This document shows, piece by piece, positions 3-32,000 of a stretch of 32,000 nt of DNA. The DNA lies in contig CAYRPF010000004.1 in NCBI GenBank assembly GCA_964426185.1, positions 53,464 through 85,463 on the forward strand, in the 5' to 3' direction. The stretch comes from an uncultured archaeon (GTDB lineage: Archaea; Asgardarchaeota; Lokiarchaeia; Sigyniarchaeales; Promethearchaeaceae). Within the stretch, counting starts at the first letter, position 1, and each line of letters opens with the position of its first letter. The notes beneath the pieces are model-generated. The model was not told the DNA's origin. It saw only the letters and a list, made by a program, of their open reading frames with translations, and ran no database searches. The position numbers and the translations under genes are program-made.

Positions 3-3000
3 AATGATAATGCTCTAAAAAAGGCTGAATCTCCTGCAATCCGCTCTTTGAAGAGCCAATCAAGTATATTGAATTCATTTGATAACATAACTCATCGTTA
101 TATTTTTATCTATTCTAATATGCTTAGTGAGACTGAAAATAGTTCTCTCTTTACGTTCTTTTCTTCAAAAGGCGGAATTATTGAACAACAAACATGGGAA
201 AATATTCCTGGATTTGCAGGAAGAATTAATAATTCTGAAAACAATTTGGGTGCTTTTATATCTGCATTTCCCCCGTTAGAAATATTTGAAGATCCCCTTG
301 TTGAAACTCAAATGAATACTGTCCAAGATCAAATTAATTTCAGACCAGAAATAGCAATGTGGAATAATTACAGCCTCAGAGGTACAAAAAACGCATCTAT
401 TGCAATTATTGATACTGGAGTGGATTACAGTCATTCATTTTTTAATTACTCATATGGCTATGAAGATTTTAATCAAACAATAATAGGATGGACTGATCTC
501 CTTTCTGATGAAAAGTTACCTAATGATAGAAATGGTCACGGAACTGCAATGAGTTCTATTATCGCAGGAAATGACAATCTTTCAGCTATTTCAAATCACA
601 GTGGAAATTCCTTCTATCTGACAAAGAATATTGCCATTGATCATTCCGACTACTTCTATCCCCACTATCTTTCAGAAAAATGGTATGATGTAAAATTAGG
701 GTCTTTTGAGATGGATGAAAATGCCTTAGATTTATTGCAAATCACGGCTAATTTATCCATCCAAAGTAATATGCAAGACTATCGATTACAATTATATCGT
801 AATGGGAATATAATAAATGAGACTTCCCTAAATCCCTTTGAACTTACATGGGATACTTCTGGAATTTTTGACTCCTCGAAAAAACCTGGTATTTACGATA
901 TTGTATTTTCTTATTATAAAAATCTAGAACAGACTCCACGTTTTACCCTCCAAATGCAAGTTCAATTTACTCCAAAAGGATATCCTCATTTACATTCAGA
1001 ATACAGCGGAATAGCTCCCGATTCTCGAATCACAATGATCCGAGCATTAAATGATACCGGTAAAGGGTATTTATCTGATTTAATTTCAGGTTTGGAAGAA
1101 GTATTAATGAATATCTCTTCAAACCACATTATTACTCTGTTGATTTCGGTTGCATCGTTTGATATTCCCCAATCGTTACAAAACTACATAGAAATATTGA
1201 TTGATGAACTCATAAATCAAGGATGTATGGTTATATTTGCCGCAGGAAATAGCGGTGTAGGGGATAAATTAAATAACTTAGCCGTCAGCAAAAAAGCATT
1301 AATTGTAGGGGCTGTAAACGATCAAGATCAATTAACAGATTACAGTGCTCAAAGTTCTTTATCCGACGATGTTAGATCCCTTGATTTATTAGCTCCAGGC
1401 GGAAGTAAGTGGTCAAATTCTCAAATGATAATAACCGCGGACTCAAATATGGGAGATCTCTTTAATAATACTTCGGATTTAATCCGAAATGATCTGACTG
1501 CAATGACTGGAACTTCAATATCTGCAGCAATTTTAGCCGGAGTCTATAATTTGGTGGTAGATTATCTTGGAGGGTGGAAATTTTGGAAATCCGGCGTAAA
1601 TATTACCGAAGAAGCTTTGAAGATAAAAAATTATCTCTTACTAACTGCTTCTGAAACTAATTTACCAAGGGAAGATAACCCATTTACACCGTTTGATGAA
1701 TCTTCTAATAGTCCAACTTTGGATCGTGGAGAAAACGATCCATATGAAGGTTACGGGCGAATTAACCCAGAAGCCGTATTAAATATGTTAAATAATTCAT
1801 TAGAATTGAACCATACATACCAGTTAGATTTGGCCGCTTCTGATAGTAACCCATTTCAAAGGCATGTTTTTGCTTTGAACATAACGTTAGTTAAAGATCA
1901 ATTGTATATTTTTAATTTAACAAATAATGAAGGTTTTTTCTCGAATTTTGATGTAGATTTATATTTATACGATAAACAAGGCACTCGAGATGGATATCCC
2001 ATTTTACTCGCTTCTGCTACTAACGCTGGAACAACAGATGAAACTTTATACTTTACAAATGTTAATGCTACTGATACTTTTTATTTGGTGGTAAAAGCGG
2101 TTTCAGGTACGGGTTCATGTGATCTCACCGTATACCCGAAATTTCAATACAGTAATCCAACATTAAATAACCATGAAATAACTGTTCAATCAGATTTGGG
2201 ATACAATGATACTCTTGATATCTACCAGTTTGAAATAAATTACACCCAGTCTGAAAACATCCCTGCCACCAACATCATTTTAGTTTTTCCCTCAATAAAC
2301 CAGAATTACTCCTTAACACAAGCTCAAATCCTTGATCTAAATTATGAAAATGGAGCAATCTATCAAATTAATGTCCACTTTGAAAATCCTGGAAATTTTA
2401 GTTATTATTTTATAGCTCGAACTGGCTCGTTATTTGTGAATTACTTACATAATACTTCTATTTCCATCTTAGTTAACCCTATTCATCATTTTGCTGGAAC
2501 AAATTTTTCCACTGAACAAGGTTTAATAGAATCATTTTGGGATGCAGAATTCGAAGATACAAAAATTTGGCGGAATAACTATCCTACAACAGTTTCCGTG
2601 GGGTGGCATCCTCTTACTGTTTCACAAAATCTAGAGCCTCGATGGAAAAACGAGTCAGAAGATTCTTGGAAATCATGGTATTTTGGTTATGCGCTATCTG
2701 AAAATTCTTCATATTATCCCTTAGTACAAGATTTTTCTCCGTTGTATACTTACGAAAATACCACAGGAATATTCACACTTGATTCTCCTATTGTGTGGTT
2801 AGAAAATATTACTTTCCCCAATTTTTCACCAATACTAGAATTAGGCTCTCGGATTAGTATAAACCAAGGAGATACTCTTCGTTTAGAAATTAATGTAAAT
2901 CGTTCAGATTGGGTAACTTTAGATTATTGGACTTATGAGCAATATGATTGGACATTGAGCAAATATAATTTGTCGAATTACGTAAACAATTACGTTCAAG

Positions 3001-4883
3001 TACGACTACGGATGGAAGTTGATTCTTCACAGTGGATATTAAAGAAAGGGATCTTTGTAGATTATTTTTCGGTTGGATGGAAGAATATAACAAATTCCCA
3101 TCAGCCTGTATTAGCTCCTGCATTCTCTACCGATAATCAAGAAATACCGCTTTCTAAATCAAAAAATGAAACAAAATGGGGGGATATTGAATTCAATATC
3201 GGATATTGGGATGCAGATGGGGATTTTCCTGTTGAAATTTTTTTGGAAATAGATAATTACAATCATTCTTTATATAATGTTGATGGAATTTGGAAAACTG
3301 GAGCATATAATCATTCAATAGACTTACAAATAAGATATTCTTGCAATATTCCATTAATTGCCCTTGAAAATTATAGTTTTAGATTTCTTGCATCTGATGG
3401 AAAATACAATGTTTCTACTCCATGGTTTAATATAGATTTATCAAACCAATATGAAATTTTGCCTTTTCCAGTAGTTAACCTATTATCCTCTGCAAATTTT
3501 ATGCGATGGGGATTCCCTCATAATCTATCAACATCAGAATGGGATTCTCCCTCTTCTGGATGGCATCAAGTCCAAACTTTAAAATCTTTAAATTTATCTC
3601 AAGAATGGTATTGTGGTATTGGAGATTACGCGGGTTACTCACATAATTTTGATGCACGATTATATTCACCAATAATTCATATAAATGCTAGTCATGAAGC
3701 ATTTCTTTATCTTTCTCACCGATTAAGGTTTGATAGCGAAGGCAACGAGGGTAATGACTTTGCCGAAATTCTCATCTCCGATGATTATGGAGACTCTTGG
3801 CATTCTCTTCAGCTATTTGAAAAGGAAACCCCTGGAATTAATTTTACAGAAATTGCAGTTGAGCTTTCTGAATATAATGAAAAAGACATTATTCTACAAT
3901 TTCTTTTTCATTCTGATAATTCTGGAGAACAAATACAGAATTCTGGCTGGAAAATAAAAGAATTATCCATAAACATCAATACAACGAAAGATTATAATCC
4001 ACCTCAGATTATCTTCTCAAATATTAAGGATGGTGAAACTATCCAAGGTGTTCTTAACATAACTATCTATATTCAAGATGATTCCGCCATCGATAAATTC
4101 AGAACAGAGATGTGGGTTGATAATCATCAAATTGATGTTCAATTAGATTCAAACCAAACTATCTCGTTAGAAATTGATACACGACCATATAAAAATGGAT
4201 ATTCCTTGGAAATCATCATTGTTGTTTACGATATTGAAGGAAATCGTCAATTTGAGAAAATTCATTTAATCGTAGACAATCCTCCTTCTACCATTTCTTT
4301 AATAATTTATAGCTTATTTGGGGTTCTGGGTTTAATTTTATTAGGAATTTACAGTTATAAACAATATATAAAACATAAATTAATTAAAGAAGGTAAGTAT
4401 GTACGTCAACCAACTTGGATTGAACGTATCCAACAGGCGAAATTTGAAACCAATAAAACTAGAGAAGAAGCTTTGATGATATTAGATCAGCTGGATTTAG
4501 AATGGGAAAAAATGCAGCCGATGAGACTCTTTTGTAAAAAATGCCATCGAATGTATATTTCACCTGAATTTGAAATTTTCTGTCCTCATTGTAAAGAGTC
4601 GACTTTGTATGTGGCAAAATATTGTCCAGTATGCAAGAAATGGAATTATTTCGATGAAGATACTATAACAACACAGTGTAAGAAATGCCATTTGACCTTG
4701 GTAAAGGACTTCAATAAAGCTAAAGCTCACATTATAGAATTTCAAAAAAAGAATATTTCCATGGTATTAATTTCGGAAGAAGATAAGCAAGCCCTTCAAA
4801 ATATAATAGAGCAGCTTTCACTTGATGAATTAATCCATTTATATGAAGAAATTAAAGATAAGAAATTGGAGAATGATTCTTGA
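3..4883 (+). CDS. Giant membrane-anchored S8 (subtilisin-family) serine peptidase with PPC, Ig-like and MAM-like beta domains, one C-terminal TM helix and a cytoplasmic double zinc ribbon; 5' end probably outside the window
   Basis: Catalytic motifs IAIIDTGVD (Asp, nt 411), NGHGTAMSSIIAG (His, nt 537), AAGNSG (oxyanion Asn) and MTGTSISAA (Ser, nt 1515). PPC-like FDVDLYLYD...YLVVKAVSG. TM ISLIIYSLFGVLGLILLGIY. Four CxxC pairs in the tail. The frame is open from the window edge to the called TTG at 48, and no signal peptide follows that TTG. Confidence 0.92.
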   Translation, partial: NDNALKKAESPAIRSLKSQSSILNSFDNITHRYIFIYSNMLSETENSSLFTFFSSKGGIIEQQTWENIPGFAGRINNSENNLGAFISAFPPLEIFEDPLVETQMNTVQDQINFRPEIAMWNNYSLRGTKNASIAIIDTGVDYSHSFFNYSYGYEDFNQTIIGWTDLLSDEKLPNDRNGHGTAMSSIIAGNDNLSAISNHSGNSFYLTKNIAIDHSDYFYPHYLSEKWYDVKLGSFEMDENALDLLQITANLSIQSNMQDYRLQLYRNGNIINETSLNPFELTWDTSGIFDSSKKPGIYDIVFSYYKNLEQTPRFTLQMQVQFTPKGYPHLHSEYSGIAPDSRITMIRALNDTGKGYLSDLISGLEEVLMNISSNHIITLLISVASFDIPQSLQNYIEILIDELINQGCMVIFAAGNSGVGDKLNNLAVSKKALIVGAVNDQDQLTDYSAQSSLSDDVRSLDLLAPGGSKWSNSQMIITADSNMGDLFNNTSDLIRNDLTAMTGTSISAAILAGVYNLVVDYLGGWKFWKSGVNITEEALKIKNYLLLTASETNLPREDNPFTPFDESSNSPTLDRGENDPYEGYGRINPEAVLNMLNNSLELNHTYQLDLAASDSNPFQRHVFALNITLVKDQLYIFNLTNNEGFFSNFDVDLYLYDKQGTRDGYPILLASATNAGTTDETLYFTNVNATDTFYLVVKAVSGTGSCDLTVYPKFQYSNPTLNNHEITVQSDLGYNDTLDIYQFEINYTQSENIPATNIILVFPSINQNYSLTQAQILDLNYENGAIYQINVHFENPGNFSYYFIARTGSLFVNYLHNTSISILVNPIHHFAGTNFSTEQGLIESFWDAEFEDTKIWRNNYPTTVSVGWHPLTVSQNLEPRWKNESEDSWKSWYFGYALSENSSYYPLVQDFSPLYTYENTTGIFTLDSPIVWLENITFPNFSPILELGSRISINQGDTLRLEINVNRSDWVTLDYWTYEQYDWTLSKYNLSNYVNNYVQVRLRMEVDSSQWILKKGIFVDYFSVGWKNITNSHQPVLAPAFSTDNQEIPLSKSKNETKWGDIEFNIGYWDADGDFPVEIFLEIDNYNHSLYNVDGIWKTGAYNHSIDLQIRYSCNIPLIALENYSFRFLASDGKYNVSTPWFNIDLSNQYEILPFPVVNLLSSANFMRWGFPHNLSTSEWDSPSSGWHQVQTLKSLNLSQEWYCGIGDYAGYSHNFDARLYSPIIHINASHEAFLYLSHRLRFDSEGNEGNDFAEILISDDYGDSWHSLQLFEKETPGINFTEIAVELSEYNEKDIILQFLFHSDNSGEQIQNSGWKIKELSININTTKDYNPPQIIFSNIKDGETIQGVLNITIYIQDDSAIDKFRTEMWVDNHQIDVQLDSNQTISLEIDTRPYKNGYSLEIIIVVYDIEGNRQFEKIHLIVDNPPSTISLIIYSLFGVLGLILLGIYSYKQYIKHKLIKEGKYVRQPTWIERIQQAKFETNKTREEALMILDQLDLEWEKMQPMRLFCKKCHRMYISPEFEIFCPHCKESTLYVAKYCPVCKKWNYFDEDTITTQCKKCHLTLVKDFNKAKAHIIEFQKKNISMVLISEEDKQALQNIIEQLSLDELIHLYEEIKDKKLENDS

Positions 4884-7813
4884 TGAAGTTAATTCAATAT
4901 ACCCTTAACGATCTTAAGCGACAACGTGTAAAAACTATATTTGCAATTGCGGGTGTTTTTGTTAGCATTTTTTTACTTACAGTTGTTGGCTCTTTGTCTG
5001 ATTCTCTGAGTTTCTCTTACTTAGATCAAGCAACAAGTGAATCTGGCTCTGCAGATATTGCAATTACAAAAATTACCACGCAAGATTATAATTATGATCC
5101 ATATTTCTCTGAAAATGTAATTCTTGAAAAGCTCGCTACTGGAATTCCCGAAATTGAAGCTTTTTTTCCTCGCATATGGAATATTATGCGAGTCGAAAAA
5201 TTTGATGAAGAAATTAACTTAAATGTCAGAAAATCCATAATCGGATATGGAATTAACACCACAGTAGAACAAGAAAGCGGAGAAATGGGTAATTTATGGC
5301 TTTGTGAAAACAATCCTTCATATACGCGGACGGAAGAAGTATTTGAAGGACCAATTCGCGATGGAAGTGTTTTACTAACTCGTGGTGCGGCAAAATTGTA
5401 TCATGCCAAAGAAGGTGATGAAATTACCGTAACATTTGGTAGTGAAACGCGTACTTATATAATTCAAGCAATAGTTGAGCAGGAATTGCGATTTTCTCGT
5501 TTAGAATCCACTTTGATCATATTTGAACTTCCTGCAGCTCAGGATTTAATGAATCAAATTGGTAAAATAAATTCAATTCAAGCAATTCTAAAGAATCCTG
5601 AAAATTTCTACGATACTCGTAATATCGCTGCAAGTTTGAGTAAAATCCGCTTAGTTGCGGAACAAGTTCAAGTTCAAATGGGTTTTGAATATCAAGTTTC
5701 TTTACCAAAAATGGAGCAAGTGGAAAATATTGAGCAGCAATCCACTATGATGACTATCACTTTCTATTTTATTACTGCGTTTTCAATGTTAATAACTGGG
5801 ATTTTAATTAATTCGATTTTGATGACTTCAGTTGAAGAACGCATTCGTGAATTTGGAATTTTGCAAGTTGTGGGAGGAAAACGGAAATTTACTTTTAAAA
5901 TGGTTCTTCTTTCGGGTTTTATAATTGCCTTTACTGGAACGTTTCTGGGTACATTTCTCGCAGCATTTACTGCGCCACCAATTTTAAACTGGATGTTCGA
6001 ATACTTTAATTTATGGGTCATTCCAATCAATTTTCTAATACTTCCTCAAACTATTATTCGATCTTTACTTATCGGTGTGATTATTACCAGTGGAATTTCT
6101 ATTTTTCCCGCATTTAGAGCCAGTCGTTTAGTAATTGCAGATGCAATAGATCCGGCTCGTCGTAATGACCTTGGTGAAAAATACCGAATTAAGAAAGAGG
6201 GATCAGCCAATTTAAAACTTATTGGAATTGGTTTTGGCATTGCATTGGCTGGCATTTTTATCTTTTTGGTTGTGCCTCGATTACTTTCAGGTTCGGGAGG
6301 CATCAATCTAACTAACTACGTGTTCATGATTGTTTTGCTATTAATCTTAATTGGATTGGTGCTGGCTACAATAGGATTTGTGCCAGTTCTAGAAAAACTT
6401 ATTGGATTGCTTTTCAAGCCTTTTATATCTCGCTATTATCCGATTTATCGCATCAACTTGGTTAGATACCGTCGACGTAATACTGGTAATATTTTAATGT
6501 TTGCGCTGACATTTGCATTCATCTTTTTTATATCTTCAATTTTAGAAATGAATACTGCAAACAATTCGGTTTTTTTTGAATTCCAATATGGAGCTGATTT
6601 GGTCATGTCAAATACCGGCACACTTGAAGCGGATAATGCCATGGATATGGGACTTTTCTATGAACTTGAAGAATTACCGGGTATTCGAAGTGCTGCACCC
6701 TTATTATCCAATAGTCCCATTGATTTTGCAAAAATCACTTCCGCAATATTTAATGTTGGAGAAGAAGGGGTGGATGATATACTGAGTTTCAGTGAAATTT
6801 TCGGAAGTATTCCCAAATTAACCACCTACGCTGGAGATCTCGGTGATTATCATAATTATTACTGTAATATTTTTGGAATTGATGATAATTTTTACGATAC
6901 CGTTGACAGAGATATGTTATTATGGGATGAAGGGGGAAATAATGAATTAATCAATGAAGTTATTCAATCTTCAAAAAAATGTATCATTGGAAAGAGTTTA
7001 GCTGATGGATTAGGGATTAGCACATTGCCTGCCCAAATTAAAATTTCTGTATTCGATCCTCAGCAAAATGATGATGATCCCGATAAAGGTAATATTACCG
7101 TTTTTGAAGTTATTGGTATATCAAAGGGAATACCTGGAATTTGGAATTTCCGTTCAAGTGAAGCTAATTTAAATATGGCTCCAGGAATATTACTAAACAC
7201 AGAAGATTACTGTGAAATCATGAACTGGGGTGATCCTACTTCAGAAGATACAATTATTGATAAGGTTTTAATTAATGTGGTAGATAATGATTATGAAAGC
7301 GTAAAAGACATTCAAAACTATGTAAAAAACTATTTTTCGGAAAATTACAAATTTATATTGGATGAACCTGAATCACTAATTCAGTTTATGGCGAGTGCTA
7401 ATAAAACTTCTAATATTGTCATGGAAGTGATACTCTTTTTCAGTATCTTAGTAAGTCTTTTTGGTCTGATTTCATCTATGTATTCTACTATTATAGAACG
7501 GATGTTTGAAATCGGGATTTTACGCGCTATGGGTATGAAGCCATATGAAGTAAGATTAATGCTGATGGCTGAAGCAGTGACTGTAATGATTTCTTCTGGA
7601 TCATTGGGAGCAATTATTGGATGGTTTATTGCCTATCTTTTACAAACAAATGTGGCATTGCTCACTGAATTACCAGTAGTTACCACAATCAATATAGGAA
7701 CCTTAATCTCTACTTTTGCAGTTTCAATAGGAATCAGCATAATCGGAATGTATTTTATTACTCGAAAAGTTCATAAAATGAAGATTATGGAAGTATTACG
7801 ACAAACATTTTAG
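4883..7813 (+). CDS. ABC transporter permease, FtsX/MacB family, two fused repeats
   Basis: Two FtsX signatures (SVEERIREFGILQVVG and TIIERMFEIGILRAMG), two large extracytoplasmic domains and about 8 TM helices. ATG at 4883 overlaps the upstream TGA (TGATG). Confidence 0.92.
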   Translation: MKLIQYTLNDLKRQRVKTIFAIAGVFVSIFLLTVVGSLSDSLSFSYLDQATSESGSADIAITKITTQDYNYDPYFSENVILEKLATGIPEIEAFFPRIWNIMRVEKFDEEINLNVRKSIIGYGINTTVEQESGEMGNLWLCENNPSYTRTEEVFEGPIRDGSVLLTRGAAKLYHAKEGDEITVTFGSETRTYIIQAIVEQELRFSRLESTLIIFELPAAQDLMNQIGKINSIQAILKNPENFYDTRNIAASLSKIRLVAEQVQVQMGFEYQVSLPKMEQVENIEQQSTMMTITFYFITAFSMLITGILINSILMTSVEERIREFGILQVVGGKRKFTFKMVLLSGFIIAFTGTFLGTFLAAFTAPPILNWMFEYFNLWVIPINFLILPQTIIRSLLIGVIITSGISIFPAFRASRLVIADAIDPARRNDLGEKYRIKKEGSANLKLIGIGFGIALAGIFIFLVVPRLLSGSGGINLTNYVFMIVLLLILIGLVLATIGFVPVLEKLIGLLFKPFISRYYPIYRINLVRYRRRNTGNILMFALTFAFIFFISSILEMNTANNSVFFEFQYGADLVMSNTGTLEADNAMDMGLFYELEELPGIRSAAPLLSNSPIDFAKITSAIFNVGEEGVDDILSFSEIFGSIPKLTTYAGDLGDYHNYYCNIFGIDDNFYDTVDRDMLLWDEGGNNELINEVIQSSKKCIIGKSLADGLGISTLPAQIKISVFDPQQNDDDPDKGNITVFEVIGISKGIPGIWNFRSSEANLNMAPGILLNTEDYCEIMNWGDPTSEDTIIDKVLINVVDNDYESVKDIQNYVKNYFSENYKFILDEPESLIQFMASANKTSNIVMEVILFFSILVSLFGLISSMYSTIIERMFEIGILRAMGMKPYEVRLMLMAEAVTVMISSGSLGAIIGWFIAYLLQTNVALLTELPVVTTINIGTLISTFAVSIGISIIGMYFITRKVHKMKIMEVLRQTF

Positions 7814-29999: not shown

Positions 30000-30066
30000 T
30001 ATTTTATTATTGCATATTTAAAGGAGAATTATGCACTCTATTAAATTTTTAAAAAAATTTTAGCCT

Positions 30067-30083
30067 GAGGGGTAGTGCCCCTC
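30067..30083. other. GC-rich inverted repeat (hairpin) upstream of the methyltransferase
   Basis: GAGGGG-TAGTG-CCCCTC, a perfect 6-bp stem in very AT-rich surroundings. Confidence 0.55.
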
Positions 30084-30104
30084 TTTAGAGATTAGTGAAA
30101 ATCT

Positions 30105-31946
30105 ATGATCATAAATAATCACTCAATATATAGCCAATTACTTGATAAGATTAATTATTCTAATGATATTAATATATTAAACAAGTATTTTAATCAAGAA
30201 TATGGGTTCATTTCTTTTTTTTCAAGTCCAAAAAAAGTTCAAGATTTCAAAACATTTTTAAAAAAAAATCTTGATAATCAAAAGAGTATAGAGTTTGATT
30301 ACCAAGATTTAGGTGATTTTCAGACACCTTTTGAATTTTCAGTTGATGTGTGTAATTTTCTTTCTAAAATAACTGAAAAATCCGAAGTATTGATTGAACC
30401 AACTTGTGGAAAAGGAAATTTTGTTTTGGCAGCTCTTAAAACAATTCCATCAATTAAATATATATATTGTGTTGAAATTCAATCAAAATATGAGTGGATT
30501 TTCAAAATAAGGTTAATACTTTTTTTAAAAACTCACAGAAAAAAAGTACAAATCGAGTTTCATAATGAAAATATTTTCACTCATGAGTTTTCTCCTAAAT
30601 TCCTTGATATGATGAAGGAAAAAGATTGTATTATATTAGGTAACCCCCCATGGGTGACTAATACCGAATTAGAAAAGCTTGGTTCTAAAAATTTACCAAA
30701 AAAATCGAATTTTAAAAAATTCAAAGGAATCGATTCAATTACAGGAAAAAGTAATTTTGATATTGCTGAATATATTATTTATCATCTTATTTCTAAATTT
30801 GATAAATATAATGGATATATTTGTATGTTATGTAAAAATATCGTTATCAGAAATATAATTAAAGAAAATCCTAAACTAGATTTAAATATTGGAGAAATTA
30901 CACAATTAAATTTCGATTCAAAAAAAATATTTAATATTAATGCAAATGCTTCAGTTTTTATTGCCAAATTGAATAGTCCTCCTGAATATACCTGTGTTTC
31001 CACTAATTTCCATAACTCTTCCCATCGTTATGAATTCGGTTGGTATCATAAAAAATTCGTTTCAGATATTGCAAAATATAAAGAAACAGAAAAATTCGAT
31101 GGTAATTTTTCTTATGAGTGGCGTCAAGGTATAAAGCATGATTTGTCAAGAATAATGGTTCTTAAAAAACACGACGATAAAGGAGAATATATTAACGGTA
31201 ATAAAGAAAAAATCTCTTTAGAAGAAGATTTAATTTTTCCCTATTTAAAATCTTCAGATTTAAAGAAAATGATTGTGAATAAATCAAGATTTTTTACAAT
31301 AATTACTCAAAAAAAAGTAGGAGAAGATACAAAATATATCAAAGAGAAATTTCCTAAGACATGGAATTATTTGAATCAAAATGTTGAATTATTTAGAAGG
31401 AGAAAATCTTCGATATATCGAAATAAACCAGATTTTTCGATTTTTGGTATTGGAAAATATTCTTTTGCAAAATTTAAGATAGGTGTTTCTGGTCTATACA
31501 AAAAGTTAAATTTCGCCTTAATATGTCCTATTGGAAATAAACCAGTTATGCTTGATGATACTTGCTATTTGGTACCATTTGGAAAGAAAAAAGATGCTAT
31601 AATTACTTGGACTTATCTAAATTGTAAGGAAGTATCTCAATTCATGGAATCAATTACTTTTCAAGATACAAAAAGACCGTATACGAAAGATGTTTTAATG
31701 AGAATATATCTACATTCAATTGTAAAGAATATTGAATTATCAAAAATTTTAGATTTCTATAAAAAAGAATTATTTAATTTGACAAATTATGAACTTAAAT
31801 TAGAAGATTTTAAGACTTATAGAAAAAATTTAGATCCTTCTAATGTAATTGAAGTTGATAAAGATAAGAAAGTATCGAAAAATAACATAATATTTACAAC
31901 AAACGCTATAAAAAAGAAAAAAATAACAGATTATTTTGGATCTTAA
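30105..31946 (+). CDS. Amino-DNA methyltransferase, gamma class (probably N6-adenine, R-M type)
   Basis: Motif X GDFQTP, motif I IEPTCGKGNF and motif IV GNPPW in gamma order, followed by a TRD-like C-terminal half. Confidence 0.9.
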   Translation: MIINNHSIYSQLLDKINYSNDINILNKYFNQEYGFISFFSSPKKVQDFKTFLKKNLDNQKSIEFDYQDLGDFQTPFEFSVDVCNFLSKITEKSEVLIEPTCGKGNFVLAALKTIPSIKYIYCVEIQSKYEWIFKIRLILFLKTHRKKVQIEFHNENIFTHEFSPKFLDMMKEKDCIILGNPPWVTNTELEKLGSKNLPKKSNFKKFKGIDSITGKSNFDIAEYIIYHLISKFDKYNGYICMLCKNIVIRNIIKENPKLDLNIGEITQLNFDSKKIFNINANASVFIAKLNSPPEYTCVSTNFHNSSHRYEFGWYHKKFVSDIAKYKETEKFDGNFSYEWRQGIKHDLSRIMVLKKHDDKGEYINGNKEKISLEEDLIFPYLKSSDLKKMIVNKSRFFTIITQKKVGEDTKYIKEKFPKTWNYLNQNVELFRRRKSSIYRNKPDFSIFGIGKYSFAKFKIGVSGLYKKLNFALICPIGNKPVMLDDTCYLVPFGKKKDAIITWTYLNCKEVSQFMESITFQDTKRPYTKDVLMRIYLHSIVKNIELSKILDFYKKELFNLTNYELKLEDFKTYRKNLDPSNVIEVDKDKKVSKNNIIFTTNAIKKKKITDYFGS

Positions 31947-32000
31947 CCAGTAAGAATACTTGATTAAATACGTTAAAAATATAATATGAGAAGGAAAATA

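Follow-up and report, generated by a model that had tools for sequence, protein, structure and literature searches.

A PIP-box-like tail on a mobile NspV-family DNA methyltransferase of a Lokiarchaeial archaeon: a candidate tether to the sliding clamp

Introduction

The ability of prokaryotic methylases to keep pace with the replication fork is usually ascribed to diffusion. Clamp motifs that differ with the domain of the host are known for the repair nuclease NucS/EndoMS, which carries a PIP box in archaea and a beta-clamp motif in Actinobacteria. Archaeal PCNA clients present a short C-terminal motif with a hydrophobic residue at position 4 and aromatic residues at positions 7 and 8 (PMC4929162), and an adenine methyltransferase of P. 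abyssi has been co-purified with NucS and PCNA, an association that does not amount to direct binding (PMC4929162). In eukaryotes, binding of PCNA improves DNMT1 function some 2-fold without being a strict requirement (PMC1934996). In a literature search of incomplete coverage, no report of R-M methylases with clamp motifs came to light. Here we analyse a methyltransferase gene at the end of a stretch of 32,000 nucleotides from an uncultured Lokiarchaeial archaeon (the window), the product of which ends in a PIP-box-like motif.

Results

The methyltransferase and its family

The final open reading frame of the window encodes a product of 613 aa, with the following features.

30105..31946, forward strand: gene for an NspV-family gamma-class N6-adenine DNA methyltransferase, now an orphan
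30396..30416, forward strand: SAM-binding motif I, aa 98-104, with E98, P99, G102 and G104 invariant in alignment A1
30642..30653, forward strand: catalytic motif IV, NPPW, aa 180-183, intact and invariant in alignment A1

Searches of Pfam and NCBIfam returned no family above cut-off, and PADLOC matched the protein to MTase_II (E 7e-117). Its AlphaFold2 model (mean pLDDT 86) is folded up to about aa 576, the closest folds are those of M.BseCI, CamA and M.TaqI, and the order of motif I, NPPW motif IV and a C-terminal TRD is the gamma m6A layout. Homologues sit downstream of an R.NspV-type endonuclease gene, which they overlap at 64/72 bacterial loci, and identity to the NspV-annotated homologues of Nostoc is ~37%. 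The 613-aa product is best explained as the methylating component of a Type II R-M system of NspV type. The recognition site of NspV is TTCGAA, and by family membership this is probably the target of the window enzyme as well; TTCGAA is only mildly under-represented in the host genome (ratio 0.86, 13th lowest among 64 palindromes). At the opposite end of the window (3-7813), the gene for a 1600-aa subtilase-family protein overlaps that for a 977-aa FtsX/MacB-type permease.

The C-terminal tail

Two further features lie beyond the folded part of the protein.

31836..31910, forward strand: disordered Lys-rich linker, aa 578-602
31914..31937, forward strand: PIP-box-like motif KKKITDYF, aa 604-611, with K replacing Q

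The preliminary description had read nt 31914-31937 as KKKITDYF near the end of the protein, and the translation agrees, with only GS and the stop codon following the motif. In the AlphaFold2 model, pLDDT falls below 50 at aa 582-606 and a short helix is predicted at 607-611. The linker, described there as Lys-rich and ~35 aa long, is indeed basic (eight K/R within aa 578-606), but is slightly shorter than proposed, as the low-pLDDT stretch limits predicted disorder to about 25-29 aa. When set against the canonical Qxxhxxaa, the tail lacks Q1, which is replaced by K604 as had been noted, and fits at hydrophobic position 4 (I607) and at aromatic positions 7 and 8 (Y610, F611).

Of 2511 host ORFs, 2.35% have the bare core [ILM]xx[FY][FY] within their final 12 aa, so that this core is weak evidence when taken alone; the tighter [ILM][TSDE][DESK][FY][FY] is found in the same position in 7/2511 (0.28%). 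When 2481 host C-termini were ranked by their resemblance to five PCNA clients of the host (Fen1, PolD, PolB, a Y-family polymerase and NreA), KKKITDYF came third, behind Fen1 and PolD, both of which belong to the training set. The C-terminus of the host Y-family polymerase, QKKITEYL, is near-identical to KKKITDYF, and position 1 of the PIP motif of host PolB is likewise without Q. By the host's own standard, then, the tail may be called PIP-like. The exact motif is known from two natural sequences only. An identical tail is present on one JGI metagenome contig, possibly from the same source data. A metagenome scan recovered only the host's own contig, and the C-terminal 114 aa of the methyltransferase, used as a query, returned three proteins only. 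Among the other N6/N4 methylase-like ORFs of the host, no clear terminal PIP was seen. Separately, a deoxynucleoside/thymidylate kinase-family protein of the host (L180; C24:2918-3742, reverse strand) ends in a Q-type PIP-like motif.

Modelled docking on host PCNA

A structure model of the tail with host PCNA, proposed as a check in the preliminary description, placed the tail in the PIP pocket. With aa 578-613 and the one PCNA that the host has (C15, L134:1084-1869, reverse strand), ESMFold2 gave a score of 0.73, against 0.01 for the best of 3 controls; the score mark applied is reached by 51/78 solved complexes and by 2/108 mismatches, and in these runs contact agreement was at least 59% and partner pLDDT at least 51. 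Modelled contacts fall at PCNA residues 41-48, 229-230 and 246-254; those of I607 and Y610 are at 41-48, 229-230 and 246-251, which make up the usual PIP pocket. Since many PIP-PCNA complexes have been solved, the score of 0.73 shows likeness to them rather than binding; on this model, the tail probably docks on host PCNA.

Close relatives

In the relative P0003, which is 68% identical, the Lys run and ITDYF are both kept, the codons for I and T differing by synonymous substitutions, whereas the linker has almost no identity to that of the window enzyme and cannot be aligned with it. Retention of ITDYF beside a fully diverged linker points to selection. It was also considered that the motif might derive from the insertion-sequence end downstream; this was rejected, as the stop codon marks the start of the repeat and the motif of P0003 occurs with no such repeat.

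A second relative shows the opposite outcome. The copy in FW102 (Ca. Harpocratesius repetitus, the closest named genome and of the same genus) is 99% identical over 1782 bp and 98% identical in protein, and has lost the PIP tail via a 35-bp duplication (L002:9718-11785). A long-read error as the source of this truncation was rejected, as the same joint is present in short-read contigs of two runs. The sister P0004 and the P. syntrophicum and L. ossiferum copies have no PIP tail. The host itself has a second NspV-family methylase (C144:615-2431, L022), 39% identical and cut by the contig end, the full-length database representative of which, P0136, has no PIP tail. The tail is evidently dispensable; among orthologues it is kept in P0003 and lost in FW102 and P0004, with PIP-like variants in other branches, and it does not look like a conserved archaeal feature.

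FW102 also contains a TGT-fold (DpdA-like) gene with a PIP-like end (L198:583-2652, reverse strand), adjoining a DUF6884 gene and an IS110 remnant; it is possible that the DpdA-like and DUF6884 pair forms a clamp-linked DNA base-exchange module.

Tails across the family

The strict beta-clamp motif, as defined elsewhere (PMC11139829), stands at the C-terminus of 47/72 bacterial homologues from GTDB genomes (64/72 with a relaxed motif) and of 0/61 Asgard homologues. PIP-like ends are present in 3/61 GTDB Asgard copies, against a host background of 3.7% (p 0.40), and no PIP enrichment was found when all 61 Asgard copies were tested; most of them, whole families included, stop directly after the last helix. 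The earlier expectation that bacterial homologues would carry beta-clamp motifs and archaeal ones a PIP motif was thus borne out for bacteria and failed for conservation in archaea. The beta-clamp ends of bacterial NspV-type methylases in complete R-M pairs are the strongest signal of this study.

A reciprocal pattern emerges when the comparison is confined to tails that extend at least 10 aa past the last helix. In the bacterial clade, 67/102 such tails hold a beta-clamp motif (1.8 in shuffles) and 4 a PIP core (4.2 in shuffles). In the remaining, Lokiarchaeia-rich tails, a beta-clamp motif occurs once and PIP cores in 17/46 (3.0 in shuffles; 0/2000 shuffles reach 17), a contrast that the shuffle comparison overstates, because the 17 rows are related, represent ~8 lineages and include several without verified taxonomy. 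The relaxed PIP core could also be an amphipathic helix, which weighs against reading these ends as clamp tails. In a tree built without the tails, the window enzyme falls inside a clade composed mostly of Lokiarchaeia (SH-aLRT 99). PIP-like tails appear in several separate branches, scattered among tail-less rows; the tree is unrooted and does not separate gain from loss of tails. Among archaeal MAGs outside Asgard, 5/401 searched have a homologue, with tails that are beta-clamp-type or absent, and one of these (L072) nests among Brocadia/Nitrospirae sequences, so that mis-binning or recent transfer is likely. From these comparisons, tethering to the clamp looks characteristic of the family, with the motif adapted anew to the clamp of each host, rather than a one-off DNMT1-like gain. 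The tail, which the preliminary description took to have been acquired by an R-M-type enzyme, is better read as an archaeal form of the clamp tail present in bacterial relatives.

Mobility of the locus

The methyltransferase gene is enclosed by remnants of other elements.

30051..30092, reverse strand: 42-bp terminus of an IS110-family element, on the side that follows the transposase, with 11 copies in the host
30090..30118, forward strand: last codons and stop of a lost R.NspV-type endonuclease gene, overlapping the methyltransferase start
31946..32000, reverse strand: opposite terminus of this IS110-family element, ~70 bp and running past the end of the window and contig, with ~14 copies in the host

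The endonuclease remnant, which matches the 3' end of an NspV fragment in FW102, amounts to nine codons in the window and to about 98 codons, without its beginning, in FW102, and a stub persists in P0003 too. A search of the 92%-complete host genome with a purpose-built alignment profile of R.NspV gave no match, leaving the methyltransferase without a complete Type II R-M system there. Across 400 Asgard genomes the same profile found the FW102 fragment only, and the methylase is present in 61/400, so that the Asgard members are mostly orphans. In three Asgard families (f16, f18, f1), the methylase occurs in 19/22, 11/12 and 11/13 genomes, respectively; these near-persistent orphan methylases are mostly tail-less, and no cognate endonuclease was found for them.

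The methylase gene is AT-rich (GC 0.24 vs about 0.33), and its flanking genes are 72-77% identical between host and FW102, against 99% for the gene itself; the two copies lie ~50 kb apart within otherwise syntenic regions. Both repeats also bound an IS110 element of FW102 with DEDD_Tnp_IS110 and Transposase_20 ORFs, which places the methylase where the IS110 interior would be. The outer ends flank the methylase in native orientation, as expected of a non-autonomous IS110 derivative. This IS110-flanked arrangement is known in one copy only, the FW102 methylase being without such ends, and an Rfam search of the repeat gave no match. Orphan methylases regarded as persistent are present in at least 75% of a taxon and vertically inherited (PMC10609329). 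The window copy departs from vertical inheritance at a fixed locus, given its 99% cross-species identity, its different site and its IS110 ends. On this evidence the gene is what is left of an R-M system that moved recently, now flanked by IS110 ends, and not a vertically kept epigenetic writer.

Many short, internally deleted IS110 copies (~220-400 bp) are found in both Harpocratesius species, where they cause many contig breaks; examples of the IS110 family lie at C30:31349-31754 in the host and at L199:568-2819. On the JGI contig, a NifB/NifX-like cofactor gene (L003:1929-2318) follows the IS end and, as a query, has no match in the host. Either the host or the JGI assembly may have been joined through the IS repeat.

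Discussion

Taken as a whole, these results allow a model to be proposed for the window enzyme. KKKITDYF would bind the PIP pocket of host PCNA via I607, Y610 and F611, and the absence of Q would be offset by electrostatic contacts of the tail lysines. PCNA clamps left on newly replicated DNA would then concentrate the enzyme at hemimethylated sites, and recruitment of this kind could speed re-methylation and bias methylation towards self DNA over incoming DNA. The tether would be an accessory efficiency device and not an essential one; the modest and non-essential contribution of PCNA to DNMT1 fits a tail that can be dispensed with. Many family members end in a floppy tail with a host-matched motif, of beta-clamp type in bacteria and PIP-like in several Lokiarchaeia branches. 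We hold with moderate confidence that an accessory PCNA tether that speeds re-methylation of new DNA is the best explanation of the tail, with binding taken from the docking model and with function and target those that we infer. A broader proposal, which we advance tentatively and would not yet rely upon, is that R-M methyltransferases of this widespread family use the sliding clamp in Bacteria and Archaea alike, that the beta-clamp motif was repeatedly lost or replaced by a PCNA motif after transfer into Lokiarchaeia, and that the tether serves as a self/non-self device, analogous to DNMT1-PCNA, which directs methylation to DNA replicated by the host rather than to incoming DNA.

The alternative that survives best, although we consider it unlikely, is that in this copy the tail does not function as a clamp ligand, being instead a relic, a fortuitous match or an unspecialised basic or amphipathic end, possibly one that makes non-specific DNA contact, packs as a helix or acts as a degradation tag, with sites found by diffusion. 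Most Asgard copies persist without a tail, FW102 has lost its own, and the bare core recurs at 2.35% of host C-termini; further, DnmA of B. subtilis needs nothing more than binding to its substrate to arrive at the replisome region (PMC9973331). However, a motif without function would not readily be kept beside a fully diverged linker or rank third among 2481 C-termini, nor does this alternative sit well with the strongly conserved clamp motif of bacterial members at the same place or with the placement of the tail in the canonical pocket of the model.

An improbable reading is that the enzyme has been domesticated in the manner of DNMT1, as an orphan methylase that Asgard archaea keep vertically, that PCNA couples to the fork and that propagates a pattern of regulatory methylation. 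The orphan state of Asgard members and the high occupancy in families f16, f18 and f1 are in keeping with it. However, those persistent families are mostly tail-less, the window copy is AT-rich and mobile, with an endonuclease stub and IS110 ends, and gamma-class R-M methylases generally also act on unmethylated sites. A role of PCNA binding away from the chromosomal fork, in which the enzyme re-marks repair patches or newly entered mobile-element DNA and so aids R-M establishment, appears very improbable, as hemimethylated sites arise far more from replication than from repair, even if the repair proteins NucS and NreA also use PCNA through C-terminal PIP motifs (PMC4929162) and the gene was recently mobile.

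The tether model has consequences that can be pursued with simple means. With a clamp motif that is conserved in most of the bacterial members sampled and gives way to a PIP-like one in archaeal members, small peptides would be enough to test direct recruitment by the clamp, on the bacterial side in E. coli, and the tail-less FW102 allele, 98% identical in protein, is a ready natural control. If the model is true, replication-coupled DNA marking would exist in Asgard archaea, by analogy with DNMT1 and not by homology; if the broader proposal is also true, clamp tethering would be an unrecognised self/non-self device, and a DNMT1-PCNA analogue would be present in the lineage nearest eukaryotes.

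When compared with described systems, the window enzyme shares with M.NspV-family methyltransferases the motif order X-I-IV(NPPW)-TRD and the fold, but is without an endonuclease and has a ~60-aa N-terminal extension and a clamp-motif tail. Its setting resembles that of cargo-carrying IS110 elements, in which passenger DNA lies between IS110 ends (bioRxiv 10.64898/2026.08.14.744561); however, the window element is without the transposase or the long non-coding end, and retains only ~42 + ~70 bp. With the archaeal C-terminal PIP clients (Fen1, PolB, PolD, NucS, NreA) it has in common a motif that ends a disordered tail, although the window motif has K and not Q at position 1, belongs to a mobile methylase rather than a conserved replication or repair enzyme, and has its binding modelled. 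In common with DNMT1 it is a DNA methyltransferase with a PIP-box tether to PCNA, in this case a modelled one; DNMT1, however, methylates cytosine at C5, prefers hemimethylated DNA and has its PIP at the N-terminus, whereas the window enzyme is of the m6A R-M type, and as the tether is not homologous and the enzyme class differs, the likeness is at most an analogy. The nearest parallel in pattern is NucS/EndoMS, where the C-terminal clamp motif within one family likewise follows the domain to which the host belongs; NucS, however, is a repair nuclease with shown binding, whereas the archaeal motif of the methylase is patchy and its binding modelled. To these systems the present locus adds a within-family reciprocity of beta-clamp and PIP-like motifs, together with a natural tail-less allele.
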